This document shows positions 13,688 to 62,296 of a stretch of 64,000 bases of DNA, in pieces. The notes beneath the pieces were generated by a model that did not search any database, had not been told where the DNA came from, and worked only from the letters and a program-made list of their open reading frames with translations. Numbering within the stretch: position 1 is the stretch's first letter; each line of letters opens with the position of its first letter. This DNA is from an uncultured Candidatus Saccharibacteria bacterium (GTDB taxonomy: Bacteria > Patescibacteriota > Minisyncoccia > UBA6257 > 1-14-0-10-44-23): positions 206,196 to 270,195 of the forward strand of contig CAYMXN010000002.1 in the NCBI GenBank assembly GCA_964394435.1, given 5' to 3'. Position numbers and translations under genes: made by a program.

Positions 13688-14263
13688 CTAGAGGTCGAGT
13701 CCTGCGTCAGTGCCGGTTTCGTATACGTCGGCGCTGTTGCCGCCGTCGGTTGATTCGAAGTCATCCGAACCACCGTTTTGATAGCGAGCAGACTCCATAT
13801 TGGCGTTTAACTCGAACGTCTTGTTCGTGTTGTCGCAAGAATAGCCGTAGTAGTACGTTGTGCCAGTAGTGACTGGGTCGCGTGGTAATACCGCGAGTGG
13901 GGAGCCACCAGTGGTTGAGGCGAGGTTAACTGCGGCCCAACCAGCACCGTCAACGGTGAAAACCCCAGCGTGTGCGATGGTTGCGGCGGTCATGGTTGAT
14001 GAAACACCCGCTTTGTCTGATCCAAAGTTGGTTCCACAGGTGAATCCCGCGCCGCCCTGAAGGGATGGAGAGGAGACGGTGGTCAAGTAGAGGGTGATCG
14101 CGCTCTTTAGGTTGCCTAAGTCGGTGATACGCTGACTGTCACGAGCTTGAGCAAAGAGCTGCGCTGGGTTAAGTACTAAGACGGTTACGGTTGCTAAGAT
14201 GGCTAAGATGGCGATGACGACGAGCAGTTCGATGAGTGTAAATCCTTTTTTAGTTGGGTTCAT
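13688..14263 (-). CDS. type IV major pilin (PilA-like), copy 1
   Basis: MNPTKKG|FTLIELLVVIAILAILA is a classic prepilin leader plus N-methylated hydrophobic helix. Confidence 0.85.
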   Translation of the reverse strand: MNPTKKGFTLIELLVVIAILAILATVTVLVLNPAQLFAQARDSQRITDLGNLKSAITLYLTTVSSPSLQGGAGFTCGTNFGSDKAGVSSTMTAATIAHAGVFTVDGAGWAAVNLASTTGGSPLAVLPRDPVTTGTTYYYGYSCDNTNKTFELNANMESARYQNGGSDDFESTDGGNSADVYETGTDAGLDL

Positions 14264-14379: not shown

Positions 14380-14946
14380 TTAGAGATCGAGCGCTGGGTC
14401 GGTGCCGGTTTCGTATACGCTGGCACTGTTGCCGCCATCGGTTGATTCGACATCGTCAGAGCCACCGTTGGCGTAACGCGTTGACTCCATATTGGCGTTT
14501 AACTCGAACGTCTTGTTCGTGTTGTCGCAAGAATAGCCGTAGTAGTACGTTGTGCCAGTAGTGACTGGGTCGCGTGGTAATACCGCGAGTGGGGAGCCAC
14601 CAGTGGTTGAGGCGAGGTTAACTGCGGCCCAACCAGCACCGTCAACGGTGAAAACCCCAGCGTGTGCGATGGTTGCGGCGGTCATGGTTGATGAAACACC
14701 CGCTTTGTCTGATCCAAAGTTGGTTCCACAGGTGAATCCCGCGCCGCCCTGAAGGGATGGAGAGGAGACGGTGGTCAAGTAGAGGGTGATCGCGCTCTTT
14801 AGGTTGCCTAAGTCGGTGATACGCTGACTGTCACGAGCTTGAGCAAAGAGCTGCGCTGGGTTAAGTACTAAGACGGTTACGGTTGCTAAGATGGCTAAGA
14901 TGGCGATGACGACGAGCAGTTCGATGAGTGTAAATCCTTTTTTCAT
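14380..14946 (-). CDS. type IV major pilin (PilA-like), copy 2
   Basis: MKKG|FTLIELLVVIAILAILA; protein identical to copy 1 except the last ~30 residues. Confidence 0.85.
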   Translation of the reverse strand: MKKGFTLIELLVVIAILAILATVTVLVLNPAQLFAQARDSQRITDLGNLKSAITLYLTTVSSPSLQGGAGFTCGTNFGSDKAGVSSTMTAATIAHAGVFTVDGAGWAAVNLASTTGGSPLAVLPRDPVTTGTTYYYGYSCDNTNKTFELNANMESTRYANGGSDDVESTDGGNSASVYETGTDPALDL

Positions 14947-15596: not shown

Positions 15597-15754
15597 GCAT
15601 CAGTATGATCAAATACTTTGTAGTTGCCCCAACCATACAATCTCCCAAACCTTGCGGTAAGGGGAAGGTGTCGTGACTTAAAAGCTCCACGACCAACACT
15701 TATTTGTTTTATCAAAATCGACACTCCTTTAATCTCCGAAGAGAAAAAAGAAAA

Positions 15755-17292
<1,538 letters not shown>

Positions 17293-17765
17293 AAAGTATT
17301 TATTTGTCATATGGTTCCTTGCGGAGTCATATGACATCCAAATACTAGACATTGGGACAACTACAAATTATTTGATCTAGTCATACCTTCATATCCATGA
17401 AGGTATTTATTGTGTGCTTCTAAAACCGACTCGCTAGTCATTTTAGAGAGCACTACCTCATCACAACCGATGCTGTGGTTGATGATGAAGCTATCTTGTC
17501 TCACATCTTTCGATAGAGACGTTTTTTCAATGAACTGACGGTGGACTCCTTTTGGTAAAAGGAATACACCTGCCTTGAGGTCCTAGCTTTGATAGGGCTC
17601 CAGGGCAGATGTATCTGGTATATGTTTTGTATTCAGTTGTCTAAAGGCGAAGAGTGCTTTTTGCCTTTTATTGAGCCATGTCTGCAGCAGAAGAAGACTT
17701 GGTTCAACTCGTGAGTACTAGTATAGTCGGGGCGAAATAAATGTCAAGCAGGTATTTGTGAAAAA

Positions 17766-18434: not shown

Positions 18435-18881
18435 CTAAGCTGCGGGGCGAACGGGGCGACGGGGGACGATGGGGACTACAGCGAGACGACAAATCGCTTC
18501 TTTGAGGGCGCTGTTCCCGTAGGCTCGGGCGTCGACTGTCCAGTTGACGGTCCTGGGGTCGGCGCAGAGACTACTGATCATTCGCGACTCGATGAGCGTG
18601 TATCCTTCGTATCCGACGAGTAGCACCGTAGGGATGTCGTGCTCGACATTCTGACGCTGCAGGGCGATGCCGTGGAGCCCCATGCTCCCTGGATCGTCTC
18701 TGTGGCGCCGGATGTCGGCGGCGATAATGATCCCGGTCGGGGACTTGATCGCCTGCACTTCATCGATGCACGTCGCGACTACCACTTCTGCCGCTGGGAG
18801 TATGCCCTTCAGCTCTACTCCTGCCTGCTGCGCGACCTTTTTGAGAGGTAGCGCAACGACGATCTTCGTGAGAATGCGCAA
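18435..18881 (-). CDS. hypothetical protein in a GC-rich islet (TTG start, strong SD)
   Basis: 148-aa ORF in a segment of about 60% GC. AAAGGAGGG lies 7 nt upstream of the TTG start. Followed by terminator hairpin CTGCGCCA..TGGCGCAG plus TTTTATTTT. Confidence 0.4.
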   Translation of the reverse strand: MRILTKIVVALPLKKVAQQAGVELKGILPAAEVVVATCIDEVQAIKSPTGIIIAADIRRHRDDPGSMGLHGIALQRQNVEHDIPTVLLVGYEGYTLIESRMISSLCADPRTVNWTVDARAYGNSALKEAICRLAVVPIVPRRPVRPAA

Positions 18882-19769: not shown

Positions 19770-21383
19770 TTACGCTTTGGCGATGCGGACGTGGAAGGTG
19801 GAGCCTTTGTTGCGTCCTTCTGATTCTGCCCAAATCTCGCCATGATGAGCGAGCATAATTTGCTTGGCGATATATAAGCCCAATCCAGTGCCTTGGATTT
19901 TTTTAGCGACCCCAGCTTCACGATGGAATTGCTCAAAGAGGGTAGGGATGATGGCTGGGTCCATGCCACCACCCGAGTCCTTAATAGTGATGAGGATACT
20001 CTTTTGCTCTTCGGCGATTGTTACATTGATAAATCCAGTTTCGGTGTACTTAATTGAGTTGTCGATTAGGTTTTCGATAACCTGGCGCATTTTGATCGTA
20101 TCAATCGAAGCGTTTAATAGTGGAGCGCTGGTATTAAAGTTGAGCTCGAGCCCTTTTTGTTTGGCGACTGGCTTAAAGTCTTCAACAATGCCGCGAGTAA
20201 AGGCGACCATGTCTTTGAGTTCGAGGTTGTATTCCATTTTTCCCTCTTCAAGCTTGCGGATGTTTAAGAATTCATCAACCAGACGAATCGCACGATCACC
20301 CGTACTTTTGATTTTGTAGGCGGTATCAAGAATTTGAGCCTCTTCGTTGTAGGTCTTGTCATAGATTAAGCTCGCCCATTGTTTCATCTTAGAAACAGGG
20401 GACTTGAGGTCGTGGCTAGCAAAGGAGAGAAACTCGTCTTTTTGCTTGTCGAGTTCTTTGAGCTTCTCGTTGGCAATGGCTAAGTCGGTGGTCAGTGTTT
20501 GGAGCTTTTCTTTTTGTTCGATTTCGCGCCGAACTCCTTTAATAAGGAGGACGCCAAAACTCATAACGAGGCTGAATACGCCAGCACGGAAAATAACAGT
20601 TTCGATATTAGTAGAAAAGATAATTTCGATAAATGTAACAATGGCGAGCAAGACGGTAAGAATCTCGGTTGTTACTACTTTAACGTTAAGGAGGTGGTGC
20701 TTGATAATTGAGTAGTAGGTGAGGGCGATGAGTGGGAAAATAAAGACTGCACCGAGGGGGATGTAGCGACTATTGTCTAAAAATGCAGGAAGTACAAAGT
20801 TGAAAATGATATGAAGGGCGAATGTGATAACACCTCCCGCGATAATGAATGAGAACTTATGTCGTTCTTCTTTCGTAGCTCGGCGAGTGCGTAGAAAAAG
20901 TGAGCCGAAGGCGAGCGTTACTAATCCAAGAATAGCTGCGCCAAACAAGAAGATTCCTAGTCCGTTTTTAACATCTTCGATTCTGCCGGTCGCCGAGAAT
21001 GCTGTAATTTGCGTGAAAACAAGCGGGGTGAGGGTGATGGCTGAAATGATCGCGACGACTGGAGTGAGGACGCGGCGGTATATATTGGGGAAAATAAACT
21101 GCTCTTTAGGAAATACAAAAAAGAGACGAAAGAGGAAATAGGTATACCAAATTGCAAAAAATGCGTGAAGACGAAGGAGCCAAAGTGTTATTTCTGGTGA
21201 TTGGCTCGGTTGGTAGTAGGCGTAGTTAAAGATACTCCATATTGCTGCGGCGAGTGCGAAATAGAAAAACGCTCGGTTTGTCGTACTTTTTTGATTATTA
21301 AGAAATACAACAAATCCAAGAATACCTATGGTGGCGATAGCTATTCCAACTGAAAGAAGATCGAGATTTTGAAAGGCGCCCAT
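19770..21383 (-). CDS. sensor histidine kinase with N-terminal multi-TM sensor domain
   Basis: About 7 N-terminal TM helices; HisKA SFASHDLKSP; HATPase_c G-boxes DSGGGM and GTGLGLYIAKQI. Confidence 0.85.
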   Translation of the reverse strand: MGAFQNLDLLSVGIAIATIGILGFVVFLNNQKSTTNRAFFYFALAAAIWSIFNYAYYQPSQSPEITLWLLRLHAFFAIWYTYFLFRLFFVFPKEQFIFPNIYRRVLTPVVAIISAITLTPLVFTQITAFSATGRIEDVKNGLGIFLFGAAILGLVTLAFGSLFLRTRRATKEERHKFSFIIAGGVITFALHIIFNFVLPAFLDNSRYIPLGAVFIFPLIALTYYSIIKHHLLNVKVVTTEILTVLLAIVTFIEIIFSTNIETVIFRAGVFSLVMSFGVLLIKGVRREIEQKEKLQTLTTDLAIANEKLKELDKQKDEFLSFASHDLKSPVSKMKQWASLIYDKTYNEEAQILDTAYKIKSTGDRAIRLVDEFLNIRKLEEGKMEYNLELKDMVAFTRGIVEDFKPVAKQKGLELNFNTSAPLLNASIDTIKMRQVIENLIDNSIKYTETGFINVTIAEEQKSILITIKDSGGGMDPAIIPTLFEQFHREAGVAKKIQGTGLGLYIAKQIMLAHHGEIWAESEGRNKGSTFHVRIAKA

Positions 21384-21413: not shown

Positions 21414-22472
21414 CTATTTCGTTTTGTACTGGATACGTGGTGCTTGCTTTGATGAGCGTGCGGTTGGATCTCCGTCTTTGCCGATACGAAAGGTGATAGC
21501 GATCAGTTCTTTTGGATTTCCAAGGGCCTTTTGCGTTTCTTTGTATGCTTGGCGGATTACTTCTTGGTGTTTTTGTGAGAGCAGATTATTTAACGCGCCA
21601 GCAGCTACGCCCTGATAGAAAAAGAGCGTCCCAGTCATAAGGTGGCAACTAAGTTTGTATGTGGTTGCGATAAGCCAGATGCGTTGCATAAGCTGTCCGG
21701 CCGCAAGAAACGCCTCGTCGGCATCAGGTATGGTGATCGCACCGATGGCTGGTGTTTTTGCGTATGTCTTTGCGTTGCTTGCGGCGATGCCTTTTGCTGC
21801 GCCGATGTGATTAAGTAGGTTCATTAATTTCCATGAACGAAATAGCTTGAGTGCTAGGCGTTGTGGTGCCGCAAGCTCCATAGTCATAAGATAGAGGCCA
21901 CTCTTTTTTTGTTTTTCTTCAGCTTCAGTCCAAACAATTTCGCTTGTGAAAAGTTTGTGCAGTTCTTGATTTTCGAGAGTGATTATTTCATTAACACTCG
22001 CTGTCCGAGCTAATTCTTTTATATCTTGTGCAGCTTCGGCGAAAAGGAGCTTGCAGGAGTCAAACGGTTGGGCGGCGCTTAATAATTCTTGTTTAATAGT
22101 GGGGCTTAGCGCTTCTGTTTTATATGGCTTTCGATTGGTAGTGCGGCTAAAAATCGCTTCGTAGAGGCGTGTTGGATGCGCTTCGGTTTTTATGAGGTTG
22201 ATTGTGGCGGTGATATTCTGATTTGTTTTGTCTGGGAAGAGCTTGATATTTGCTTGATATCCGAAATGTTCAGCAGCGATGCGTATATTTTCGATTAGTG
22301 CTCCATGGGCGAAGAGGGTGCCGCGATTGCGAAAGTTGAGGACCGGGTGGTCTTTCTCTGGTTCGGCGATAACGGTTATCGCATTTTCAGAAACTTCAAA
22401 TCGCCATGGCTGTGAGTTGCTCCCTGATGGCGCCTGGCAGCCAGCTTCGATAATTTTTTGGATATCATTCAT
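21414..22472 (-). CDS. nitroreductase-superfamily oxidoreductase, two-lobed (SagB/McbC-like)
   Basis: 352 aa; AGCQAPSGSNSQPWRF matches the nitroreductase FMN-binding N-terminal motif. Confidence 0.6.
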   Translation of the reverse strand: MNDIQKIIEAGCQAPSGSNSQPWRFEVSENAITVIAEPEKDHPVLNFRNRGTLFAHGALIENIRIAAEHFGYQANIKLFPDKTNQNITATINLIKTEAHPTRLYEAIFSRTTNRKPYKTEALSPTIKQELLSAAQPFDSCKLLFAEAAQDIKELARTASVNEIITLENQELHKLFTSEIVWTEAEEKQKKSGLYLMTMELAAPQRLALKLFRSWKLMNLLNHIGAAKGIAASNAKTYAKTPAIGAITIPDADEAFLAAGQLMQRIWLIATTYKLSCHLMTGTLFFYQGVAAGALNNLLSQKHQEVIRQAYKETQKALGNPKELIAITFRIGKDGDPTARSSKQAPRIQYKTK

Positions 22473-27344: not shown

Positions 27345-29162
27345 ATGAAATTGTTTAGTTTAGAGCTAGGCGGGGGGCCGCTTGCGCAGATGTTTCGAAA
27401 TATGATTCGGATTACTGCGATGGTTTGGCGCAAAAATAAGCGCTTGGTTCTTTTCTCTGCCTTAATGTCTGCGATTATGTCAGCAGCCCCTTTTTTCTTT
27501 GCTGGTTCGCGAGGGTTATTGATTGATGATTTGATCGCGCATACAGGGAGCGGGAGTTTTGCTTCCTCAATAGTGTTCTACTTAGCGCTAACTCTAGCGT
27601 CTGGGCTTTTAATGCCAATTTCTACGGCTGTTGCTGTTTATTTAGAGAAGTATTTTTATTTTGAGTTAGATGAGCAGTTTGAGTTTTTAATAATTAAGCG
27701 TCAGGCAGAGCTTGATATTGCTGTTCATGAGGATCCGACTTATAACGATCTTTTTAATAGAGTCAGGGAAAATGGTCTATGGCGCGTGCAGAATTTTATT
27801 AGTAGGGAGTTTTATATTTTTCAAAATATTCTAGAAATTATCATCGCATTTATTATTCTCGCGGCGGTGAACTGGTGGCTGATTGTTGTTCTTTTACTAT
27901 GCACAATTCCAGAGATGATAGTTCAGGTCAAATATGGAAATTATGAGTGGGGAGTTTGGGCTGGGCACTCTGAAGAGCGTCGACATTATTGGGTTGCGCG
28001 AGGCCAGTTTGATGTTGTTTCGTCGCTTATTGAGTTGCGTCTTTTTCAGAGTGTTTCATATTTTATTGCACGACTAAAAGAGCTTTTTGGTTCTGTGCGT
28101 AGCAAGCAGAGAAAGAATGAGCGGCGAAGGTTTATTCATCAGATGTTGGCGCTTATCCTTGGACAACTCGCCATTGCTTTTGCGATGGGTTGGTTTGTCT
28201 ATCTTGTGACTAAGGGAGAGCTGCTTATTGGTGCATTTACTTTCTTTTTAGCTTCGATAACTGACTTACGTCAATCATTTTCCTCATTGTTCGGAAACAT
28301 TGGAAGGCAGTATCAGGATAGTCTGTTCCTTACAGATGTATTTAGATTGCTTGATATTAAGTCTGTTATTTCTCAATCAACTCAGCCAATTCATCTTGAT
28401 AGCTCGCGTGCTCCGGCTATTGTTTTTGATAATGTTACGTTTCGGTATCCGAATACGTCAGTTGATGTCCTTAAAAACTTTTCACTTACGATTGAGTCTG
28501 GCGAAAAAGTGGCAATTGTTGGGGTTAATGGTGCCGGCAAAACAACATTAATTAAGTTGTTGTGTCGATTCTATGATCCAACCGAAGGAAGAATTTTGGT
28601 TGATGGATATGATTTGCGAGAGATAGATATTGAGAGTTGGTATCATGTCGTAGGTGCATTGTTTCAGGAGTATGTTAAATATGAGCTTGTTGTAAGCCAG
28701 GCAATTGCGCTTGGTAGGGTGGCGGATGTAAAAAATACTGAGCGTATCAAGCTTTCTGGTCAACAAGCAGAGGCGGATGTATTTATAAATGAGTGGGCGA
28801 ATAAGTATGAGCAACAACTTGGCAATCAGTTTAGTGGTGGGGTTGAGCCTTCGATTGGACAATGGCAAAAGTTAGCCTTAGCTCGTGCATTTTATCGTGA
28901 TCCGCGCGTATTTATTCTTGATGAGCCAACGTCTTCAATTGATGCCGAGGCTGAAGCCAAGATTTTTGAGAAGCTTGAGGGGTTGCCAAAAGATAGAACT
29001 GTTATTCTTATTTCTCATAGATTTTCTACAGTTAGGCAGGCAAATAAAATTGCAGTCATTGAGGGTGGCAAATTGAGTGAGCTTGGGACGCACAAAGAGC
29101 TGTTAAAAGAAAATGGAACATATGCGAGGTTGTTTAAAATGCAGGCGAAGGGGTATATATAA
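27345..29162 (+). CDS. ABC exporter, fused permease plus ATPase (MsbA-like)
   Basis: 6-TM N-terminal domain; Walker A GVNGAGKTTL; Q-loop and signature region; Walker B ILDEPTSSID. Confidence 0.85.
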   Translation: MKLFSLELGGGPLAQMFRNMIRITAMVWRKNKRLVLFSALMSAIMSAAPFFFAGSRGLLIDDLIAHTGSGSFASSIVFYLALTLASGLLMPISTAVAVYLEKYFYFELDEQFEFLIIKRQAELDIAVHEDPTYNDLFNRVRENGLWRVQNFISREFYIFQNILEIIIAFIILAAVNWWLIVVLLLCTIPEMIVQVKYGNYEWGVWAGHSEERRHYWVARGQFDVVSSLIELRLFQSVSYFIARLKELFGSVRSKQRKNERRRFIHQMLALILGQLAIAFAMGWFVYLVTKGELLIGAFTFFLASITDLRQSFSSLFGNIGRQYQDSLFLTDVFRLLDIKSVISQSTQPIHLDSSRAPAIVFDNVTFRYPNTSVDVLKNFSLTIESGEKVAIVGVNGAGKTTLIKLLCRFYDPTEGRILVDGYDLREIDIESWYHVVGALFQEYVKYELVVSQAIALGRVADVKNTERIKLSGQQAEADVFINEWANKYEQQLGNQFSGGVEPSIGQWQKLALARAFYRDPRVFILDEPTSSIDAEAEAKIFEKLEGLPKDRTVILISHRFSTVRQANKIAVIEGGKLSELGTHKELLKENGTYARLFKMQAKGYI

Positions 29163-31579: not shown

Positions 31580-32335
31580 ATGGTGGATGAATCAACAATC
31601 AATAAGTGTATTTTAGAAATTCGAGCGGGAGCTGGTGGAGACGAGGCGGCTATTTTTGCTGGAGATTTGGCGCGTATGTACCAACGCTATACCGCATCGA
31701 AAGGGTGGGGGTTTAAAATTTTTGATTATAACGAGACGGGGCAAAACGGATATAAGAGTTTTTTTGCGCAGGTTTCGGGTAGTGGTTGCTATCTTGCTCT
31801 GAAATTAGAGTCAGGCGTGCACCGCGTACAGCGTGTTCCAGCTACAGAGAAAGCTGGGCGCGTACATACTTCGACTGCGACGGTAGCGGTTTTGCCTGAA
31901 CTTGAAGCGAAAGAGATTGTGATTAGCCCAAATGATTTAGAGGTTACATTTTCTCGTGCCGGTGGTCCGGGTGGGCAAAACGTGAACAAAGTAGAGAGCG
32001 CGGTTCGTATTACGCACAAACCGACTGGGATTGTAGTCAGTTCACGCGCCGAGCGTGCGCAGGCGGCTAACCGTGAGGCGGCGATGTCGCTCTTGCGGGC
32101 GAAATTGTATGACTTGGAGCAGCAGCGTACGCAAGGACAGTTTGCGGCAGATCGTCGTGAGCTTGTTGGTACGGCTGACCGGAGTGAAAAGATTCGAACG
32201 TATAACTTTGCTGACGATCGCTTAACCGACCACCGCTTTGGTGTGAAGGTGCACGATATTGAAAGTATTTTAAACGGTGATTTGGATAAGTTGCTGAATA
32301 AGATTAAAAAATCTCAAGAGGGGGAGAAGAAGTAA
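31580..32335 (+). CDS. prfA: peptide chain release factor 1-like protein that lacks N-terminal domain 1
   Basis: PAT tripeptide anticodon motif ([15 protein letters not shown]); GGQ motif ([12 protein letters not shown]). Only 251 aa, against about 355 aa for typical RF1. Confidence 0.75.
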
Positions 32336-32399
32336 TATTCATAAATAAAAAGAAAAGGCCCACACGATCGGGGCCCTTTGATTTGCGGCGCACCTCCTC

Positions 32400-32633
32400 C
32401 TAGGGGTGCGCGTTATTTTGCTGGTTGTTGTTCTGCTTCTTCTTCGGGGCGACGGACTTCGCGAGTGACGTCAGGATGCTGGCAACCGTCTTGCGGACGA
32501 GGTTGATCGGCATCATGGCGAACACGGGCTTGAACTTCGCCTTCTCTCGAAGCGGGGTGAACAACATGTCCAACCCGAGCAGAATGATTTCGATGAGCGC
32601 GAACATCTGCAGGTAGTACTCAAACGTTGTCAT
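32400..32633 (-). CDS. 77-aa small membrane protein in a GC-rich islet (strong SD)
   Basis: CAGGAGGT lies about 9 nt upstream of the ATG; one or two TM helices then a Lys/Asn/Gln tail; terminator hairpin GGCCCCGATCGTGTGGGCC downstream. Confidence 0.4.
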   Translation of the reverse strand: MTTFEYYLQMFALIEIILLGLDMLFTPLREKAKFKPVFAMMPINLVRKTVASILTSLAKSVAPKKKQNNNQQNNAHP

Positions 32634-32746
32634 GGTCTGGTGACCTCCTGATGTATATTATATCACTAAAATATATAAAAGTCAATGAACTGATTTGGTT
32701 TATTTGGATACTAAAAACCCTCGTTACGCGAGGGTTTTTAGTATCT

Positions 32747-35033: not shown

Positions 35034-36383
35034 ATGGGGCAGTCGATTTTTAAAGCGTACAATATTCGCGGAGCGTATCCGACCGAACTTAATGAGTCGA
35101 TGTTTTTCCGTATTGGTCGCGGATTAGCTGATATCTTTGACGGACGCGTTCTCGTTGGTCGTGATGGGCGACTTAGTTCGCCGGATTTATATGCTGCTCT
35201 TATAGCCGGGATGCGGGCGGCGGAGAAGAAGACGCTTATTATTGAAGCGATTGGTATCATGACGACGCCGATGCAGACGTTTTTAGTCCATCAATTTGCG
35301 TTTGCGGGTTCGGTAATGGTTACCGCGTCGCATAATCCAGCCGGAGATAATGGATTAAAGATTTTAAATAGCCAAGGGCGGGATGTACCGATGAGTGAGG
35401 TGGTGAGCGCGTATCAACGGTATGAGCAGTTGGCGATACCACGACAGGTGTCGGCAGTATCTGAAGCTGATAGTACGCCACACTTTGATGCGTATGTTTC
35501 GTTTTTGAAAAGTCAGGCGCGAATCAGGCGCCGGGTGCGCGTGGTATTTGATTGCTCGAATGGAGTTGTCGCGAGCGTCGTCTCTCGTTTGCAGAAGATA
35601 CTTACCGATGTTGATTTTATACTGCTCAATGAGCAGATTGATGGTCATTTTCCGGCTCATGGGCCAAATCCAAAAGAGGTTGGTGCGACTGAACAAGCGC
35701 AACGCACAGTGGTTGAGCAGCACGCAGATTTTGGCGTGGTATTTGATGGAGATGCTGATCGCGCGGTGTTTGTTGATAATCAAGGCAGGAGGATGAGTGC
35801 GGAGGCGACAACGATTTGTATCGCTCAACTTTTTACCGGTCCGATCGTGATTGAGCATACGCTTGGATATGTGGTGCGGGCGTTTGCTCGTCAGGCGAAT
35901 CGAGAAATTATTGAGACTAAAGTTGGCAGTTCGTATATTCATACGGCGATGCATGAGGGTGGGGCGGAGTTTGGTGCAGAGAGCTCATTCCACTTCTATT
36001 TCAAATCATTTTTTGGCAGCGATGATGGGCTGATGGCGTTTGTGTCGATGCTCACTATTGTTTCGGGAGGGGAGTTGTCGCTCAGTGAGTTTGTAGATGC
36101 GCTTCCTAAAACAATTCGGATGGATGAGCTCAACTTTTCATTTTCATCGCAAGAGCAGATCGCCGAGCTGCTGGAGACGCTTTTTATTACGTATGGTTCG
36201 CGGGCGAGTAACACTGTTCAGATAGATGGGATTAAATGTGAATTTATTGACCCGGCGTGGTGGTTTTCGGTGCGGCCATCGGCCAATGAGCCACTCGTGC
36301 GGTTTAACCTTGAGGCGCTCGATAGTGCGGTTTTTGAATCTAAAAAAGCAGAGATTCTATCGATTATTCGTCGATTTAAGTAG
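35034..36383 (+). CDS. phosphohexose mutase family (phosphoglucosamine/phosphomanno-mutase)
   Basis: Active-site TASHNPAGDNG; Mg loop FDGDADR; 449 aa. Confidence 0.8.
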   Translation: MGQSIFKAYNIRGAYPTELNESMFFRIGRGLADIFDGRVLVGRDGRLSSPDLYAALIAGMRAAEKKTLIIEAIGIMTTPMQTFLVHQFAFAGSVMVTASHNPAGDNGLKILNSQGRDVPMSEVVSAYQRYEQLAIPRQVSAVSEADSTPHFDAYVSFLKSQARIRRRVRVVFDCSNGVVASVVSRLQKILTDVDFILLNEQIDGHFPAHGPNPKEVGATEQAQRTVVEQHADFGVVFDGDADRAVFVDNQGRRMSAEATTICIAQLFTGPIVIEHTLGYVVRAFARQANREIIETKVGSSYIHTAMHEGGAEFGAESSFHFYFKSFFGSDDGLMAFVSMLTIVSGGELSLSEFVDALPKTIRMDELNFSFSSQEQIAELLETLFITYGSRASNTVQIDGIKCEFIDPAWWFSVRPSANEPLVRFNLEALDSAVFESKKAEILSIIRRFK

Positions 36384-36407
36384 GTTTAAGGGGGGGTTGA
36401 GGGGGTA

Positions 36408-36436
36408 TTGACTTTTTACTTATTTTATGCTATACT
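36408..36436 (+). promoter_or_regulatory. sigma70-type promoter (TTGACT-17-TATACT) driving the GC-rich micro-ORF islet
   Basis: ttgact at 36408-36413 and tatact at 36431-36436; preceded by G7/G5 tracts. Confidence 0.5.
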
Positions 36437-36459
36437 TTTCTTTGTCAGTACCTGAAATT

Positions 36460-36489
36460 GCGACCCGTTCTACGGGCTCGCTGGGAGGA
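36460..36489 (+). repeat. leader element copy 1 (hairpin GCGACCCG-TTCTA-CGGGCTCGC followed by GGGAGGA SD)
   Basis: About 85% identical to copy 2; sits 8 nt upstream of the ATG at 36498. Confidence 0.7.
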
Positions 36490-36497
36490 GATGCATC

Positions 36498-36662
36498 ATG
36501 GACGATATCGATATCCTCGTGCTAGTGGTCCTCGCGGTTGCCGTCGTGGCAGCCGTGATCGGCCTCTTCGCGGGGGCTACGGTCTACTTTTTCGGCAGTT
36601 TGGGCGTATTGCTGGCATACGTCGGTGTGGCGTATCTGGCGTACGTCACGTACGGCCGGTGA
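36498..36662 (+). CDS. 54-aa hydrophobic micro-protein (two predicted TM helices)
   Basis: Translates MDDIDILVLVVLAVAVVAAVIGLFAGATVYFFGSLGVLLAYVGVAYLAYVTYGR; GGGAGGAG SD; high GC3. Confidence 0.45.
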   Translation: MDDIDILVLVVLAVAVVAAVIGLFAGATVYFFGSLGVLLAYVGVAYLAYVTYGR

Positions 36663-36674
36663 CTGGAGGACGAT

Positions 36675-36878
36675 ATGAAGAAGGACATTCGAGAAGAGGT
36701 CGAGCGCCGTGTGCGCCGCCTACTGACCAAGATGTGCAGCTGCCAGCGGGCAGGCTGCAACATGTTGCACGTGTGCGACACGGACAAGATCGTCCAGGCC
36801 GCTCTCGCGTGCGACGTGTGCGGGGACATGCGACCGAACAAAGAGGATGGCACATGCCCCGGGTGCGGGAGTGCCTGA
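36675..36878 (+). CDS. 67-aa Cys-rich (8 Cys) small protein, zinc-ribbon-like, with amphipathic N-terminal leader
   Basis: Translates MKKDIREEVERRVRRLLTKMCSCQRAGCNMLHVCDTDKIVQAALACDVCGDMRPNKEDGTCPGCGSA; SD GGAGGA 5 nt upstream. Confidence 0.5.
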   Translation: MKKDIREEVERRVRRLLTKMCSCQRAGCNMLHVCDTDKIVQAALACDVCGDMRPNKEDGTCPGCGSA

Positions 36879-36902
36879 CTTTAAGTGAAACTCTGGAAAA
36901 AT

Positions 36903-36932
36903 GAGACCCGTTTCACGGGCTCGCCGGGAGGA
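36903..36932 (+). repeat. leader element copy 2 (hairpin GAGACCCG-TTTCA-CGGGCTCGC plus GGGAGGA)
   Basis: Direct repeat of 36460-36489; 6 nt upstream of the ATG at 36938. Confidence 0.7.
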
Positions 36933-36937
36933 TTCCT

Positions 36938-37093
36938 ATGGACGGCAAGATCAGCGTGCGTCACGAGGTCATCTCGGTCATCATCGTCTTCGGTGCGATC
37001 CTGGCCGCCATCCTGGTGCCGGGCAAGAAGCTCGACCAGAAGGCGGCGGACGCGATGGCGAAGGTCAGCGCGACGCTCTTCGGAGGGCGCTGA
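36938..37093 (+). CDS. 51-aa hydrophobic micro-protein (single TM)
   Basis: Translates MDGKISVRHEVISVIIVFGAILAAILVPGKKLDQKAADAMAKVSATLFGGR; its stop overlaps the next ATG as TGATG. Confidence 0.45.
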   Translation: MDGKISVRHEVISVIIVFGAILAAILVPGKKLDQKAADAMAKVSATLFGGR

Positions 37094-37127
37094 TGGACGA
37101 AGACAGGACAGAGAGAAGGTTCGTTTG

Positions 37128-37223
37128 ATGGTGGGGGTCGCGATCGCGATTCTCGTCATCGCAGTGATTGTCGCTTGCCAAGTGCGAGCGGCAATCAGCC
37201 CGGAAGGCTTCGGCTTTCCGTAG
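37128..37223 (+). CDS. 31-aa hydrophobic micro-peptide, translationally coupled
   Basis: Translates MVGVAIAILVIAVIVACQVRAAISPEGFGFP; preceded by an 11-codon ORF MDEDRTERRFV (37093-37128) linked by TGATG overlaps. Confidence 0.35.
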   Translation: MVGVAIAILVIAVIVACQVRAAISPEGFGFP

Positions 37224-37259
37224 AGGCGCTTTGTGCAAACAGAGCGCCTTAATTTTTTA
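37224..37259 (+). terminator. rho-independent terminator closing the micro-ORF islet
   Basis: aggcgct-ttgtgcaaacag-agcgcct followed by taatttttt. Confidence 0.7.
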
Positions 37260-37823
37260 TAACAAGTAGGTCTGGGTATCTACCGGAAACTCGATTGTTA
37301 CTTTTGTTGGAAGTTCTTTGTTGCGATCAGGTACTAATAAAAAGCCAAATTTTTTCGCTTTGTCATAAATTTCCTTGGTGATTTTTACATCGTTTTGGCA
37401 GTACTCTTTAAGTTCATCCATTTTTCCCGCGGCGTAGAGGATCGGAGCGGCGATGTTTTGATGGGTTTTGCCCATACCTAAGTTAGCTTTGGCGAGATTG
37501 TCGAGGCCGACTAAGCGACCAGTTTGTTGTTCGATTTCATTAGAGAGGTCGAGTTTTGGGTGATTAGTGAGATCGAGGCCAAGTGTGCGGCTTAAAATAG
37601 GGAGGTCGAATTTGTTTGAAGAGAAGCCGACGAGTAGGGCCGGGGGAGTGAGAAAAGTCTTGAGCTCGGCGAGCTGGGTTTCGTCAAAGCAGAAGTATTT
37701 ATTTTTGTTGTATGAGTAGATGCAACAAACCGACATCTGGAGCTGATCGAGATGGGCGCGGGTTTTTCCGCCGACGTCGGCGAAGGTGTTTTTAGTTTCG
37801 ATGTCGAGTACGAGGGTATCCAT
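37257..37823 (-). CDS. DEDD-family 3'-5' exonuclease
   Basis: Exo I LVLDIETKN; Exo II GFSSNKFDLPIL; Exo III Y..D region (YCQNDV). Confidence 0.6.
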   Translation of the reverse strand: MDTLVLDIETKNTFADVGGKTRAHLDQLQMSVCCIYSYNKNKYFCFDETQLAELKTFLTPPALLVGFSSNKFDLPILSRTLGLDLTNHPKLDLSNEIEQQTGRLVGLDNLAKANLGMGKTHQNIAAPILYAAGKMDELKEYCQNDVKITKEIYDKAKKFGFLLVPDRNKELPTKVTIEFPVDTQTYLL

Positions 37824-38007
37824 AGATAGGTATTTGCTAATGGCTTATAGCGTATAGGAAATAAGCGGAAATATCTACTTAATGTTATATTGACTTTATG
37901 TTTAAAAAATGCTATAAAATAAATCAGCAAGCCTAGGCATAGGCAAGCCCCTTAGCTGGCGGGTAGCCAGGAGTTTCCCGGCGATTAGTCGGGGAAGGGA
38001 TTTGAAG

Positions 38008-38601
38008 ATGAAGTTCGACGACCTGACGCACGGGCAGACCAAGGCACTTGTCACCAAGCTTGGTGGCGCGGATAAGGCCCTCGCCATTCTTCGTGGAGAG
38101 ATAGAGATGGTTGAAAAGCGTCTCACTCCGCCTCGTCCGCTTCGCCTTCTTCGTCCTACGGCGAAGTGTCGCTTCGCTGTTGAGGAGACTTTTTTTGGTA
38201 AGACGGCGGTACGGATTGACCATCGAGGCGATAGCTTCACGGCAGGGTTTAGATCTATTGTCGAGGAGCCTGTCCTCGAGGCGACTCTTGTCCCATTTGA
38301 TCTCAATCAAGCTGCATCTGACGGTGCGATTATTGCCGATTTGGGCGGTGAGGACCGTGCCGAGGTGGCGCTTTCCCAGGTTTGGAGACTCCTTGAGCGT
38401 CAGCCTAATGGCGAGGAGGGTGTTCTGCTCACTAGCGGGTACGCGAACATCTTTTACGTTCGTGACATTGCGGGGGCGTTGCGCGTCGTAACGGCCGTCT
38501 GGGTTGCCTTGAAGAACGGCTGGCAAGTGTACGCCAATTCTCTCCAGGGGCGTCCGCGCTTTTTGGACGGTGCCTGGCGTGTTTTCTCTTACAGCTCCTG
38601 A
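38008..38601 (+). CDS. hypothetical protein in a GC-rich single-gene islet (SD plus own terminator)
   Basis: About 58% GC; GGGGAAGGGA precedes the ATG; ORF about 197 aa; no recognisable motif. Confidence 0.45.
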   Translation: MKFDDLTHGQTKALVTKLGGADKALAILRGEIEMVEKRLTPPRPLRLLRPTAKCRFAVEETFFGKTAVRIDHRGDSFTAGFRSIVEEPVLEATLVPFDLNQAASDGAIIADLGGEDRAEVALSQVWRLLERQPNGEEGVLLTSGYANIFYVRDIAGALRVVTAVWVALKNGWQVYANSLQGRPRFLDGAWRVFSYSS

Positions 38602-38611
38602 TTCCTTGTAT

Positions 38612-38650
38612 CCTCGTGCGCGACTTGTCGCGCACGAGGATTTCTTTTTC
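38612..38650 (+). terminator. rho-independent terminator after the GC-rich gene
   Basis: cctcgtgcgcgac-ttgt-cgcgcacgagg followed by atttcttttt. Confidence 0.7.
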
Positions 38651-44581: not shown

Positions 44582-45031
44582 TCAGCTTGCGGCTGATGCG
44601 GTGGGTCGGGGGAGTATGCCGATCGCTTCGAGAGCGTAGCGATGCGGCTTAAGGAGATCTTCCATCTCCTCAAGCTGCTTTTGCGAAAAAACGCCGACTT
44701 CTTCTCCTTCGTCACCCCGCTCTTTGAGGCCTTCGAGTGTGGCGACTTCGGCCGTGTAGAGGACGAAGGTGTGCTTTGTCCTCGGCTCGTTGTAGCTGAA
44801 GGTGAGCTGGAAGGGCGGGATGTTGATTCCCGTTTCCTCTAGTAGCTCGCGGGTCGCCGCGACATTGGGTAGCTCGTAGGGCTGGCTCTTGCCGCCCGGG
44901 AGCTTCCACAGGGGACGATTGAACTTCGGGTCGCGTACGAGCACGACCCCTTGAGGCGAGCGTACGAGTACGGCGACCGCGTAGTCGCTATACTGCATCT
45001 CGGCCTCATCTGAGCTGTCCTGCTTGCTCAC
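44582..45031 (-). CDS. NUDIX hydrolase encoded in a GC-rich segment
   Basis: Nudix box GGKSQPYELPNVAATRELLEETGI; about 58% GC; GTG start (ATG alternative 11 codons downstream). Confidence 0.7.
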   Translation of the reverse strand: MSKQDSSDEAEMQYSDYAVAVLVRSPQGVVLVRDPKFNRPLWKLPGGKSQPYELPNVAATRELLEETGINIPPFQLTFSYNEPRTKHTFVLYTAEVATLEGLKERGDEGEEVGVFSQKQLEEMEDLLKPHRYALEAIGILPRPTASAAS

Positions 45032-47851: not shown

Positions 47852-48534
47852 CGTTTCTGTTTGGAGCGCTTGTTCGCACGGTATATCTTAATCCTGCGCA
47901 AACTGGTCCGCTGGTAATCTTTTTGGTCGTAGCATTTTTGCTGTACGCCCAGCCGATTTTTCGTACATTTCGCCACCTTGGTTCACTCATTGTTTTGTGT
48001 GCGGTAAGTATCTTCGCTTCAGTTGTGTTCTCGGTTAATATTTCTCCGACGCTTGTGGCGCTGATTTTTGCCGTTTTGTTTTATTTACTTCTTGGTATTA
48101 AAACGATGCGATTAACTCGCCGTACCGAGTGGTATCTGTTGTTCCAGATTACGCTCTTTTATATTCTTTCTGTGCTGTTCTTTGCTTCTGACAAGGGAGA
48201 GTCGTTTGTCTATAAACTTATTGGGATGTTTTTCGTTTCCTGGTTTTTGCTGCGTGATTATTACCGGACTATTGATCGTCCACTTACCTTAGAGGTACGC
48301 ACTGTTTCTCTCGTACTCTCCGTTCTTATCGTGCAGGCGCTTTGGATGATTAGTATTTTGCCTTTTTCGTTTTTTGTTAGCGCGGGACTTATTTTGATGG
48401 TATTTTTTGTTCTGCAGGAGATTTCGCGGTTTTATTTGGCAAAACAACTGACGAGCAAAATGCTTTTCAGCTACGTATTCGCCTTACTCGTTGTATTTGG
48501 TGTTACGTTTGCACTTGTCCAGCTTCACTACTAA
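47852..48534 (+). CDS. polytopic membrane protein (start uncertain; track ORF begins at 47788 inside clpB)
   Basis: 6-7 TM helices; no motif recognised. Confidence 0.35.
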
Positions 48535-50426
48535 CGGGTAGTCCAGTCGATATCAGGGCGAAGTTGTTTGGCTACTGCCAGAAGTTTTTGGTATGCGGCA
48601 TCGTCGCCAAGTGTTTTGGCTGTTTTGAGTAATATGGCGATAAACTCGATGCGAGTTGGGGCTATTTCGAGCGCTTCCTTATACAGCGCTTGGTTGCGCT
48701 TCAGGTAGTCAGTTTGATTAAAGAGTATGCCTGCGCGTAGGTTAAGTCCGCCGTTGGTATATACATCTTTTAAGCCAGACATCTTAGAGCGGTTAGCATC
48801 AAACCACTGGTTAGCCATATCAACAACTGAACGAATTGCTTCGATCGAGATGTTTGGATTTGCCCGCGCAGTTCCTTCGATAATGTTGATGATGAAGCGG
48901 TTAAATGCGGCTACGGTTTCTTCTTGCCCGACTGGTGAGGGGAGGTTATATACGTGCTCAAATGCTTTGATGCCATCGTTTCCATTTGCTGAACGGTGGG
49001 CGTTTGCGAGGGCGAGATTTTTTTGGAATGGGAAGACGTCGGTAATGATAATACTTGTAATGAGTACGGTGGCTATCGCAAGTGTCGTGAGGAGTCCGGA
49101 TCCGGTTAGTTCGTAGTACTCTTCCGTCAGATCAACGGGTTGTCGATCGGTATTTATTACGCACACGATAAACGTATAGAGAATGATGTATACCGGCAGT
49201 ACGTCGAAGAGGAAAAATCCTTGCGTGAAGTAGGCGATTGGTAGGGCGAATAGGATTGATTTCCAGAGGTTGCGTGGATAGCGTTTTATCTCTTTGTAGT
49301 AAAAGAAAAATATCGCAAGGTAGGCGAAGAGCAGTGTTATACCTCCACTGATAAGATATTCGAGAAACACATTGTGGGTGCGGTCAAAGAATGATTCGAT
49401 GCCAAAGTGTTTCGGGTTGTAATACTTGTCGAATACGTATGGAAAATTTTCCGCACCCCAGCCTAGTAGTGGCCGTTCGATTACGCCAGCGACTGCTGAT
49501 CCCCACGTCCAAAGACGAGGTTGGATTTCTTTGAGTGCTCCTCCGATATTGAGAAACCGGTTTACGACGGGAATGTGTTGCCAAAAGCTCGCTTGGCTTG
49601 TTGCTACAAAGGTTATTCCGGCTATGCTGCAGGTAAGTAGTAAGCCAAAGGCGACAAGCCGTCCTTTACGTGTATGAGCAAACCAGATTTCGGCGATGAG
49701 TACGGTAAGTCCGGCGACCATTACGGCGAGGAGCGCTCCGCGCGTGCCGGTTTGGAGTAGTGCGAAGCTTTCAACTGCGAGTAGCGCACCCCAGAGCGTT
49801 TTTTGAATAGCAGTCTTAGATCGGCGCATCATATATATGATGAGTGCGATACTGATAATCAGATATCCTCCAAGATATGACGGGTTGCCGAGTGTTCCGG
49901 AGATACGCTTATCTGCAGCGATGATTTTGAGTTTGCCGGCGAGTTCTGGGTTTGGAAACTTATAAAAATATAGTTGAGCGAATCCGTAGACACATAAGAG
50001 TCCGCTTGTGATAATCGTCGCTTTAATTGTTCGGATGATTGTTTTTGGATCGGTAAATAGGATAGAACTTAGCAGGAAAAAGAGTGCGTAATGCATAATT
50101 TGAAATGCTCCTTCGCCTCGTTCGAAGTTTGACCAAAATGCTTGAGTTGGATTCTGTGAAATGAGCGCGGTGCTGACGGCGATGAGCGCAAAGAGTATTA
50201 CGCTTATGTTAATCGGGCGGCGAAGCTGTGTTTTAATAGTCTGAAGCAGCGCGCTTCGATTATTAGCGAGTAGTATGTGAGCAAGGAGAAAGGCGAGGGC
50301 GAGCTCGATAAGTATGCGGAAGATGATTGCTTTTCCGGCGATAAAGGGGAAGTAGAGTCCGTTGATTAATATGAGCGGCGTAAAAATTGCCGCAAGTGTA
50401 CAGAAGCGAGCGATTTTAATAAGCAT
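48531..50426 (-). CDS. O-antigen ligase (Wzy_C)-like polytopic membrane protein with C-terminal TPR-like soluble domain
   Basis: 631 aa; more than 10 TM helices with a large extracytoplasmic loop; helical C-terminal ~150 aa. Confidence 0.5.
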   Translation of the reverse strand: MLIKIARFCTLAAIFTPLILINGLYFPFIAGKAIIFRILIELALAFLLAHILLANNRSALLQTIKTQLRRPINISVILFALIAVSTALISQNPTQAFWSNFERGEGAFQIMHYALFFLLSSILFTDPKTIIRTIKATIITSGLLCVYGFAQLYFYKFPNPELAGKLKIIAADKRISGTLGNPSYLGGYLIISIALIIYMMRRSKTAIQKTLWGALLAVESFALLQTGTRGALLAVMVAGLTVLIAEIWFAHTRKGRLVAFGLLLTCSIAGITFVATSQASFWQHIPVVNRFLNIGGALKEIQPRLWTWGSAVAGVIERPLLGWGAENFPYVFDKYYNPKHFGIESFFDRTHNVFLEYLISGGITLLFAYLAIFFFYYKEIKRYPRNLWKSILFALPIAYFTQGFFLFDVLPVYIILYTFIVCVINTDRQPVDLTEEYYELTGSGLLTTLAIATVLITSIIITDVFPFQKNLALANAHRSANGNDGIKAFEHVYNLPSPVGQEETVAAFNRFIINIIEGTARANPNISIEAIRSVVDMANQWFDANRSKMSGLKDVYTNGGLNLRAGILFNQTDYLKRNQALYKEALEIAPTRIEFIAILLKTAKTLGDDAAYQKLLAVAKQLRPDIDWTTR

Positions 50427-61100: not shown

Positions 61101-61793
61101 ATGCTGCATCCGTTTCTTATTACTGGACTCGGACTTTTGCCAAGCTTAATTTGGCTGATTTTCTATTTACAGGAAGACCGGAAACATCCCGAGCCGCTGC
61201 GTATGATTATATACGCCTTTGTCTTGGGTGGGCTGATGACTTTTTTTGCGCTTGTCTTACAGATTTTGTTGCGTTTGGTGCTGTATGAAAATGGCGTGCC
61301 CGCACATAGCGAGATAGAGCTCGCGGTGTTTTCAGTGGTTGAAGAGGTGTTGAAGTTTTTAGCCGTATTTATCTTTATTCGCAAGCGACAGGAGTTTGAT
61401 GAGCCACTGGATGCGATGATTTATATGATTATCGTCTCCTTGGGATTTGCAGCCGTGGAAAATATCGCCTCGCTTGGACAGTATTCGAATGGCGTGAGTG
61501 GGCTTATCGGGATTACTACGATGGAGGCGGTGGCGTTACGCTTTTTTGGCGCGACCGTGCTGCATAGCGTTTCTTCAGGATTGCTTGGGTATCATTGGGC
61601 TATGGGTATTGAGCGACGCAGGGCGGTTGGATGGTATATCGCCGTTGGTCTTGGGGTAGCTATCTCTCTGCACACGCTTTTCAACTATCTGATTATTAAG
61701 ACGGGGCCGGGGAGCTGGGCGATCGCGTTTACGGTCTTTATCGCATTTTTCCTTTTAGCTGATTTTGAGACGCTTAAGGCGACTGATGATTAA
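61101..61793 (+). CDS. PrsW-family intramembrane metalloprotease-like protein
   Basis: Polytopic; EEVLKF and FAAVEN motifs characteristic of the PrsW (CPBP-related) family. Confidence 0.55.
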   Translation: MLHPFLITGLGLLPSLIWLIFYLQEDRKHPEPLRMIIYAFVLGGLMTFFALVLQILLRLVLYENGVPAHSEIELAVFSVVEEVLKFLAVFIFIRKRQEFDEPLDAMIYMIIVSLGFAAVENIASLGQYSNGVSGLIGITTMEAVALRFFGATVLHSVSSGLLGYHWAMGIERRRAVGWYIAVGLGVAISLHTLFNYLIIKTGPGSWAIAFTVFIAFFLLADFETLKATDD

Positions 61794-61816: not shown

Positions 61817-62296
61817 ATGGATAATGACACGAAGAAATTTTTTGAAGAGTTAGCTTCTGGTGCTCATTTGAAGGCGAAAAAGGAGTCACGAGCCGAAGAA
61901 GAGCATAAAGAGGTTATTGAGCATACCGATGAGCCCTCGCTCGAGGGGAGTATTGCTGATGAGCGCGAGGGGCAGCTTACGATTGATGTGTATCAACGCC
62001 CGGATGCGATTGTGATTGAGTCTCCGATCGCGGGAGTGCGCAGTGATGACTTAGAAATTACGATTACCAGTGAGTCGGTGACGATTCGGGGTAAGCGGGA
62101 GCGGGAAGGGGCGATTAGTGATGAGGATTACTTTTATCAGGAGTGTTATTGGGGAAGGTTTTCCCGTTCGGTCATCTTGCCGCAGGAAATCGACCCGGAT
62201 AGCTCGGAAGCGAGCATTAAAAACGGGGTTTTGACCCTGGTGATGCCTAAAGTAAACAAGGCGAAGCAGAAAAAGCTTAAGGTAAAGATAGATTAG
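61817..62296 (+). CDS. small heat-shock protein (Hsp20/alpha-crystallin)
   Basis: alpha-crystallin domain DVYQRPDAIVIESPIAGVRSDDLEITI...GRFSRSVILP...NGVLTLVMPK. Confidence 0.8.
   Translation: MDNDTKKFFEELASGAHLKAKKESRAEEEHKEVIEHTDEPSLEGSIADEREGQLTIDVYQRPDAIVIESPIAGVRSDDLEITITSESVTIRGKREREGAISDEDYFYQECYWGRFSRSVILPQEIDPDSSEASIKNGVLTLVMPKVNKAKQKKLKVKID

Follow-up and report, generated by a model that had tools for sequence, protein, structure and literature searches.

The window, by which we mean the whole stretch of 64,000 nucleotides (nt) that was analysed, comes from a Saccharibacteria-like patescibacterium and holds, between a phosphohexomutase gene and a convergent exonuclease gene, a cassette of very small open reading frames (ORFs) that is the subject of this study. 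A sigma-70-type promoter (36408–36436, plus strand), with TTGACT and TATACT boxes 17 nt apart and an extended −10 element TGCTATACT (TG), was recognised by a consensus scan and is one of only two promoter-like sites in the 3 kb scanned. Six nucleotides past the −10 box lies TGTCAG (36443–36448, plus strand), the putative region of transcription start, at a spacing that is conserved in relatives. There follow on the same strand ORF1 (54 amino acids (aa); 36498–36662), ORF2 (67 aa, eight of them Cys; 36675–36878), ORF3 (51 aa; 36938–37093), ORF4 (11 codons; 37093–37128) and ORF5 (31 aa; 37128–37223), with two TGATG stop/start overlaps, at ORF3/ORF4 and ORF4/ORF5. A UUCG-tetraloop hairpin (37201–37220, plus strand), found by folding, overlaps the final codons of ORF5, and an intrinsic terminator (37223–37258, plus strand), found by folding and scanning, consists of a 12-bp stem (37223–37250) and a T-run. 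The G+C content of the segment is 0.55–0.65 versus 0.42–0.47 in the flanks. The upstream flank (35034–36383, plus strand) encodes the phosphohexomutase (PGM/PMM, GlmM-like, according to the Pfam families of the identical L003 gene), carries no Shine-Dalgarno (SD) sequence and is seemingly leaderless; the downstream flank (37257–37823, minus strand) encodes the DnaQ-like 3′–5′ exonuclease, our synteny anchor. The whole locus is 100% identical to the window in four independent assemblies. An earlier account of the same DNA, made from its letters (hereafter the sequence-only reading), had proposed the promoter, the tandem small ORFs, a duplicated leader, the two overlaps and the terminator, and all of them were found where it had placed them. 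Its statement that all ORFs start with MD or MV fails for ORF2, which starts with MK, and ORF2 would also pass the 60-aa filter by which none of the ORFs was said to be caught.

ORF1 and ORF3 are each preceded by a copy of a direct repeat of 35 nt (36455–36489 and 36898–36932, both on the plus strand), the two copies being 86% identical. When up to three mismatches are allowed, the repeat is present twice in the window versus zero occurrences expected by chance. In the first copy a hairpin (36460–36481) is followed by the SD sequence GGGAGGA (36483–36489), located 8 nt ahead of the ORF1 ATG; in the second, the hairpin (36903–36922) and GGGAGGA (36926–36932) lie such that 5 nt separate the latter from the ORF3 ATG. 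In both the minimum-free-energy and the centroid folds of the two leaders GGGAGGA is mostly unpaired. The repeat had been described previously as 30-nt elements with an 8-bp hairpin; the repetition itself is real, albeit longer, and the hairpin folds into 9 bp with a one-base bulge. In L005, a related metagenome-assembled genome whose phosphohexomutase is 90% identical at the amino acid level, the leader is found in a single copy; the second copy is missing and a plain AGGAGGA stands before the ORF3 homologue. Three further lineages (L010, L012 and L109) possess a different hairpin of their own just 5′ of the first SD; across lineages the structure of the leader is thus kept and its sequence is not. 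The possibility that the leader hairpin serves as a terminator on the plus strand was rejected, since no U-run follows it. On the minus strand a T-run (CTCATTTTTC) comes after the hairpin of the second leader (36906–36920); in that orientation the hairpin obtains a terminator-like score and could halt antisense transcription that arrives from the convergent exonuclease gene. We also considered an integron, but no integrase was found among the window genes scanned and the repeat, a 22-nt hairpin plus SD, is not attC-like.

Open frames alone are not significant at 60% G+C, and other, Arg-rich frames (148, 112, 92 and 89 aa) run across the region. The named ORFs are regarded as coding because of codon-position periodicity, SD placement and comparison with relatives. 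In the named frames the G+C contents of the three codon positions follow the order GC1>GC2<<GC3, with values at the third position (GC3) of 0.72–0.92; the sets are 0.67/0.36/0.76 for ORF1, 0.59/0.49/0.81 for ORF2 and 0.62/0.40/0.92 for ORF3, and a fourth set among the named frames is 0.66/0.44/0.72. Neither the alternative frames nor the antisense ORFs display the pattern, and the GC3 periodicity changes frame exactly where the ORFs do. GGAGG precedes four of the five starts, those of consecutive ORFs, at a distance of 3–6 nt (the GGGAGGA of the ORF1 leader being listed at 8 nt). An antisense ORF of 92 aa, which the gene caller chose on two contigs, was rejected on account of its wrong GC frame pattern and lack of an SD.

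ORF1 is computed to have a hydrophobic stretch (residues ∼6–51) of sufficient length for two membrane spans, and was predicted by the gene caller on independent contigs. At the corresponding position L005 encodes an unrelated 40-aa peptide, the two sharing only a remnant, GVAYLA in the peptides and 13 nt in the DNA. ORF2, the SD of which (GGAGG) is at 36665–36669, encodes a soluble peptide in which an N-terminal charged helix is followed by CxC-x4-C-x5-C and CxxC-x11-CxxC (CDVC-x11-CPGC) motifs; it probably binds zinc. An AlphaFold2 model of ORF2 (mean predicted local distance difference test score of 65.7, that is, of low confidence) contains two helices, with only a short bridge where the two CxxC knuckles of a zinc ribbon would lie, and a Foldseek comparison of this model to the PDB gave no match. 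The ORF3 product has one membrane span and then a basic amphipathic tail; in its homologues from L005 (57% aa identity) and L007 the frame is kept, indels being in-frame 3-nt events, and the ratio of nonsynonymous to synonymous substitution rates (dN/dS) is ∼1.2–1.9, with conservative exchanges among hydrophobic residues. ORF5 encodes one membrane span (hydrophobic residues 1–24) and is 77% identical to its L005 homologue at the amino acid level, with a dN/dS of 0.20. Computed net charges of the hydrophobic peptides are −2, +3 and 0.

The 25-nt junction TTCGGAGGGCGCTGATGGACGAAGA (37079–37103, plus strand), which takes in the SD located in the terminal ORF3 codons (FGGR), the TGATG overlap and the beginning of ORF4, is identical in the window, L005 and L007, within surroundings that are ∼79% identical between the window and L005. 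ORF4 and ORF5 correspond in L005 to a single 41-aa ORF, MDEDRERIRLMIGVA...SFGSP. Comparison of the two sequences shows that ORF4 is the N-terminal remnant of such a 41-aa gene, split by a 5-nt insertion near 37105–37112. The membrane span of ORF5 is rescued by the second TGATG restart, and the four independent assemblies all share the window sequence at the split. The five reported frames are all present, but the last two represent one gene split by a frameshift.

In order to find out what occupies the same slot elsewhere, relatives were gathered using the exonuclease as an anchor and their genomic surroundings were then inspected; on contigs without the phosphohexomutase gene the slot was defined as adjoining the exonuclease. 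The slot contains small membrane-peptide genes in at least eight lineages of Saccharibacteria-like Patescibacteria (it is occupied in L005, L006–8, L009, L010, L011, L012/13, L108 and L109/110). Lineages with exonucleases 57–95% identical to that of the window have one to five tiny hydrophobic ORFs accompanied by SDs, stop/start overlaps and a terminator, and hydrophobic segments were computed for nearly all of the slot peptides; L015 and L107 have one small hydrophobic or doubtful ORF each. The promoter pattern TTGACTTTT-N11-TGCTATAYT-N6-TGTCA is common to the window, L005, L010 and L012/L013, lineages whose exonucleases are only 58–93% identical. The window, L005 and L010 have TGTCAG, and L012/L013 have TGTCAA at the same spacing. 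A metagenome scan with the promoter and TGTCA pattern returned 89 loci, nearly all of them generic strong promoters, and the useful ones were relatives of the L012 type.

The content of the slot turns over rapidly. L005 shares the promoter and carries a single hairpin-SD leader, but neither ORF1 nor ORF2 nor leader copy 2 occurs there. Both L005 and L007 carry a second cassette encoding three small membrane peptides (with its own terminator in L005), which is missing from the window; between these two lineages, two of its three peptides show dN/dS values of 0.24–0.29. The peptides of the deeper lineages are mutually unrecognisable, with L010_b and L011_b as the sole exception, and what recurs there is a pair composed of a 50–65-aa two-span peptide translationally coupled to a 45–70-aa single-span peptide with a charged N-terminus. 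In L012, an rve-family transposase of an insertion sequence (5999–6874) lies between the phosphohexomutase gene and the cassette promoter; its sibling L013 is free of the insertion sequence and has an indel variant of the second peptide. The fold of 37185–37262, covering the UUCG hairpin and the terminator, has a z-score of −5.9. Across three lineages the UUCG hairpin displays one compensatory pair and two one-sided changes that keep pairing (96% of cells paired), and the two 3′ hairpins together one compensatory and five one-sided pair-preserving changes (98% of cells paired). Conservation in a related genome had been named beforehand as a check on the sequence-only reading, and homologues of ORF3 and ORF5, as well as the leader, were found in L005.

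Database searches did not connect the cassette to any described system, as the earlier account had already supposed. Pfam, NCBIfam, PHROGs and PADLOC gave no family match for any of the peptides (in PHROG, none below E=0.08), and Rfam returned for the locus a sub-threshold match to BjrC68 (32.2 bits versus a gathering threshold of 39), which is accounted for by the UUCG hairpin and terminator, and a spurious miRNA match. Among 5.8 billion proteins ORF2 retrieved only itself, and a full HMMER scan of 1.84 billion representatives added one marginal Cys-repeat protein (E 3e-4); a profile of ORF3 and ORF4/5 retrieved from the 5.8 billion proteins only itself and the sister-species copy. Phage and plasmid collections searched with tblastn and blastn, and viral contigs scanned with the leader motif and the peptide profile, contained no match. 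Similarity to SecG, SecE and TatA was considered, but there was no Pfam match at E≤10 and the sequences are also not conserved between sister species. ORF3 does resemble TatA/Hcf106 in having an N-terminal span, a Pro/Gly hinge (PGKKL) and a basic amphipathic helix; however, its hinge motif is not conserved in L005 or L007. We found no description of such a locus in the literature.

The neighbouring genes encode FtsK, the phosphohexomutase, the exonuclease, an orphan, and RNaseH-like, YibE_F, Fur, ZIP, aminotransferase, HtrA, NUDIX and ClpB proteins; further upstream there are genes for RF1, response regulators, GNAT, TehB and an ABC transporter. Within ∼10 kb there is no maturase, which agrees with the previous description, and no C39-peptidase exporter, immunity, endolysin or phage gene. 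The genes scanned between 13.7 and 57 kb include none with a maturase-type domain, and none for a radical-SAM, YcaO or LanM/LanC protein, a protease or an exporter was seen within ∼10 kb. The only ABC transporter gene (27345–29162) is 7 kb away and its product has no peptidase domain. The cassette peptides, on inspection of their sequences, have continuous hydrophobic spans and no double-glycine leader.

In its composition and translation signals the cassette is foreign to the style of its genome. Its GC3 of 0.72–0.92 compares with 0.50 ± 0.08 for the genes of the window. Codon optimisation for expression was rejected as the cause, given that the genes for S13, S11, S4, L13, S9 and RpoA have GC3 of 0.41–0.48. 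The cassettes of other lineages are also GC3-rich relative to their flanks. Core genes, those for ribosomal proteins and rpoA included, are without SDs (for example 2812–3264, 19770–21383, 21414–22472, 48531–50426, 61101–61793, 61817–62296 and 35034–36383). In 13 of 46 core genes a TAnAnT −10 box ends 5–8 nt ahead of the start codon, which is the spacing expected of leaderless transcripts, and this suggests that leaderless mRNAs are widespread. The 16S rRNA gene of the window (15754–17293) ends (15754–15770, minus strand) with GGAUCA-AUUAAACU where the model has GGAUCA-CCUCCUUU, so that the canonical CCUCC anti-SD is missing; a polypyrimidine run, CUUUUCUUUUUUCUCUUC, comes after this end, with no CCTCC downstream. 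This 16S end rests on a single assembly, as the independent contigs that carry the neighbouring DoxX gene are all broken at the rRNA gene. Duplex energies calculated with the canonical tail average −3.2 ± 2.8 kcal/mol over 45 core genes; the cassette ORFs, together with three further GC-rich ORFs, lie between −10.0 and −14.8 kcal/mol. If the polypyrimidine tail were longer, which is speculation, its pairing energy with the SDs of the cassette would be −8 to −11 kcal/mol. The same split between SD-less core genes and SD-bearing cassette genes is seen in L005, L010, L012, L108 and L109/110. Reduced detection of anti-SDs in the candidate phyla radiation has been reported for a Parcubacteria subgroup only (PMC9297842), and we found no report of SD or anti-SD loss for Saccharibacteria. 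The likeness to SD-poor translation systems, that subgroup included, lies in the SD-less core genes and the 16S tail without CCUCC; the difference is that here, outside Parcubacteria, a minority of GC-rich genes bears perfect SDs.

Several other genes of the window also drew attention. A second autonomous GC-rich unit (32340–32685, minus strand) consists of a TTGACT-17-TATAAT promoter, an AGGAGGT SD, a 77-aa orphan ORF (GC3 0.87, with one hydrophobic segment and a Lys/Asn-rich tail) and a terminator. A promoter-like TTGACT...TGCTATAAA is followed by an orphan ORF of 197/199 aa (G+C content 0.56, no family) and a terminator (37890–38640, plus strand); this unit is missing from L005 and present in L006–L008. 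A 148-aa ORF without family match (18435–18881, minus strand; GC3 0.72) has the SD AAGGAGGGTG before a TTG start, although on the identical contig L111 the gene caller chose an 80-aa ORF on the opposite strand. A NUDIX hydrolase gene (44582–45031, minus strand; GC3 0.72) and a 140-aa orphan (63577–63999, minus strand; GC3 0.76) could form one compositional class with the cassette. A gene for a release factor of 251 aa (31580–32335, plus strand), with PCRF and RF-1 domains and PAT and GGQ motifs and with the N-terminal domain missing, has TATAAT 7 nt before its ATG and is seemingly leaderless; it is of the RF1 type, and no RF2 frameshift site was available as a probe of SD use. Two tandem pilin-like genes (13688–14263 and 14380–14946, minus strand), each with an N-terminal methylation motif, are identical to each other in internal GC-rich stretches, a sign of recent duplication.

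We lean, if only modestly, towards regarding the locus as a genuine autonomous operon of ∼0.8 kb that would encode three tiny membrane proteins (ORF1, ORF3 and ORF5) and the soluble Cys-rich ORF2, and would be the local state of a syntenic envelope locus with fast turnover. This retains the earlier idea of an autonomous operon of micro-ORFs with hairpin-SD leaders and translational coupling, which our results support, and adds to it the clade-wide syntenic and hypervariable nature of the locus, the ORF4/ORF5 split, and SDs and GC3 that are foreign to the translation style of the genome. Transcription would start near 36443, and the mRNA would be stabilised by the 5′ hairpin beside a free strong SD and by the 3′ UUCG hairpin and terminator. 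Stem-loops and strong SDs that stabilise mRNAs from the 5′ end are known from the ompA 5′ hairpin, the Bacillus aprE leader and the cryIIIA STAB-SD. Like these, the cassette leader has a short hairpin close to the 5′ end and, directly after it, an SD-like sequence of great strength; here, however, one copy is internal, between cistrons, and the resident 16S rRNA is without the canonical partner. Each cistron would be started at its own GGAGG or by TGATG termination-reinitiation, giving coupled output. The hydrophobic products would then enter the membrane of the producing cell, probably as a hetero-oligomer, and might have their function at the envelope, where the cell meets its host or phages; such a role is proposed to account for how fast the locus diverges and how its genes come and go. 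The duplicated leader may represent a recombination join by which an ORF1–ORF2 module was stacked ahead of an ORF3–ORF4/5 module. Our best guess as to function is a membrane micro-protein complex at the cell envelope.

Several points weigh against this reading. The transcript and the peptides are predictions from sequence, and so are membrane insertion, assembly of a hetero-oligomer and a function at the envelope. ORF2 is without comparative support, its coding status depending on composition and SD only. For ORF3, dN/dS is about 1 or more and substitutions are equally distributed over the three codon positions, which, taken by itself, fits non-coding DNA. The leader folds are only as stable as shuffled sequence (z = +0.4 and −0.3). 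Finally, with no canonical anti-SD in the 16S gene and no SDs on the core genes, the GGAGG sequences of the cassette have no canonical partner.

As to where the cassette came from, it is conceivable, albeit clearly less probable than not, that it is a foreign moron-like insert, acquired, perhaps more than once, from a donor with high G+C content that uses SDs (for example the actinobacterial host or its phages), and that it landed behind a resident promoter at a recombination hotspot; its SDs and codon usage would then be marks of the donor and not adaptations. Since this concerns origin only, it is compatible with the operon reading. Phage morons are promoter-gene-terminator units of atypical base composition, and the cassette is like them in its autonomy, atypical G+C content and presence/absence distribution; it differs from them in its chromosomal context and in the conservation of slot and promoter over deep divergence. 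An import would agree with GC3 values of 0.72–0.92 against a genome mean of 0.50 (sd 0.08) that are not linked to expression, with the restriction of canonical SDs to GC3-rich genes, with presence/absence among close relatives and the insertion sequence in the slot, and with the other promoter-ORF-terminator units of atypical G+C content at 32340–32685 and 37890–38640. However, no donor emerged: ORF2, ORF3 and ORF4/5 have no credible homologue in the 5.8 billion proteins, the phage and plasmid collections or the viral contigs. In addition, high GC3 and SDs are common to the cassettes of deeply diverged lineages and the junction is invariant, which argues for a maintained function rather than a decaying import.

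The sequence-only reading had likened the cassette to small-toxin, holin, bacteriocin or precursor-peptide modules, analogies which failed every test run, with neither a family match nor partner genes. We consider it unlikely that the cassette is a membrane-damaging toxin module of the type I toxin, holin or pinholin kind, whose hydrophobic peptides would depolarise or permeabilise the membrane of the producer (for dormancy, lysis or abortive infection) under the control of ORF2 or an RNA. Size, one or two spans and charged termini are as in type I toxins and holins, and the rapid evolution and strain-specific content would also fit; ORF1, ORF3 and ORF5, with 31–54 aa, are indeed small hydrophobic peptides of the kind expected. 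Like the type I toxins and small membrane proteins Hok, Fst, TisB and DinQ (30–60 aa, one or two spans, short charged termini, fast-evolving and often unannotated), they could easily escape annotation, but they belong to an operon of four to five cistrons with a strong promoter, exposed SDs, no antisense promoter and a fixed syntenic slot. The promoter is strong and constitutive-looking and the SDs are unpaired, the opposite of type I toxin repression; on the minus strand (35500–38500) the consensus scan, the only method applied there, found no promoter-like site for an antisense RNA. Endolysin and phage genes are also missing from the neighbourhood, PHROG, Pfam and PADLOC gave no match, and the fixed chromosomal slot across the clade is unlike the distribution of mobile toxin-antitoxin loci.

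Release of the peptides as antimicrobial or host-directed agents appears less probable still. The psm-alpha operon and the leaderless bacteriocins such as aureocin A70 encode tandem tiny peptides that have their own ribosome-binding sites and no N-terminal leader peptides, and are amphipathic, usually cationic and exported by dedicated ABC transporters. The cassette is alike in its tandem layout with an SD for each peptide, and high inferred expression and arms-race-like divergence would be in keeping with release, as would the fact that the group containing the source organism consists of epibionts of other bacteria (PMC9297842). Its peptides, in contrast, have plain, strongly hydrophobic membrane spans with acidic or mixed termini (charges −2, +3 and 0) instead of cationic amphipathic helices, and neither an exporter or immunity gene adjacent to them nor a family match was found. 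We would give about as little credence to the idea that the cassette is part of a separate gene class dependent on SDs, in a bacterium which no longer has the canonical anti-SD and otherwise initiates translation on leaderless or SD-less mRNAs; such GC-rich accessory operons would be read by another kind of interaction, for instance with a lengthened polypyrimidine 16S tail (...CUUUUCUUUUUUCUCUUC), as a translation channel that can be controlled separately, or, more radically, would carry signals suited to a high-GC, SD-using actinobacterial host and not to the epibiont.

We consider it very unlikely that the GC-rich segment is non-coding, acting as a spacer or a structured RNA whose frames are open by chance. 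Such open frames are common at 60% G+C (P ∼0.13 for 68 codons, by our own calculation) and overlapping alternatives are many, the ORF3 substitutions are even over codon positions, and the gene caller twice preferred the antisense 92-aa ORF. Against this stand the frame-specific GC3 periodicity, the correctly spaced SDs before four consecutive ORFs, hydrophobic spans kept by conservative substitutions and dN/dS of 0.2–0.3 in ORF5 and two genes of the second cassette; moreover, Rfam yielded no family and unusually good folding is confined to the two ends. A precursor locus for ribosomally synthesised and post-translationally modified peptides, in which enzymes from other loci would modify ORF2 or the hydrophobic peptides, can practically be dismissed: a small Cys-rich peptide (eight Cys in 67 aa) does lie beside other small peptides, but no gene for a modifying enzyme, protease or exporter occurs within ∼10 kb, ORF2 is an orphan missing from the sister species, which is not how precursor families behave, and its two CxxC pairs look like a zinc knuckle and not like a leader-core precursor.

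Most accessory genes in the tiny genomes of Patescibacteria lack an explanation, and the biology of these bacteria is centred on the envelope that touches the host cell. A locus at which position and promoter are kept over deep divergence and nearly all of the peptide content is replaced is a candidate for the host or phage interface, and it offers a compact knock-out target in cultivable, transformable Saccharibacteria. The contrast in translation signals is of interest in its own right. Should the mature 16S rRNA end in GGAUCAAUUAAAC... and have no CCUCC, the genome would pose a true SD paradox; should CCUCC turn up in other assemblies, the end seen in the window is an assembly artefact and the cassette genes would just be a minority that uses SDs. 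Were the former confirmed, it would open a route to ask how translation initiation works after loss of the anti-SD, and whether SD-bearing genes such as those of the cassette are separately regulated or recently imported.

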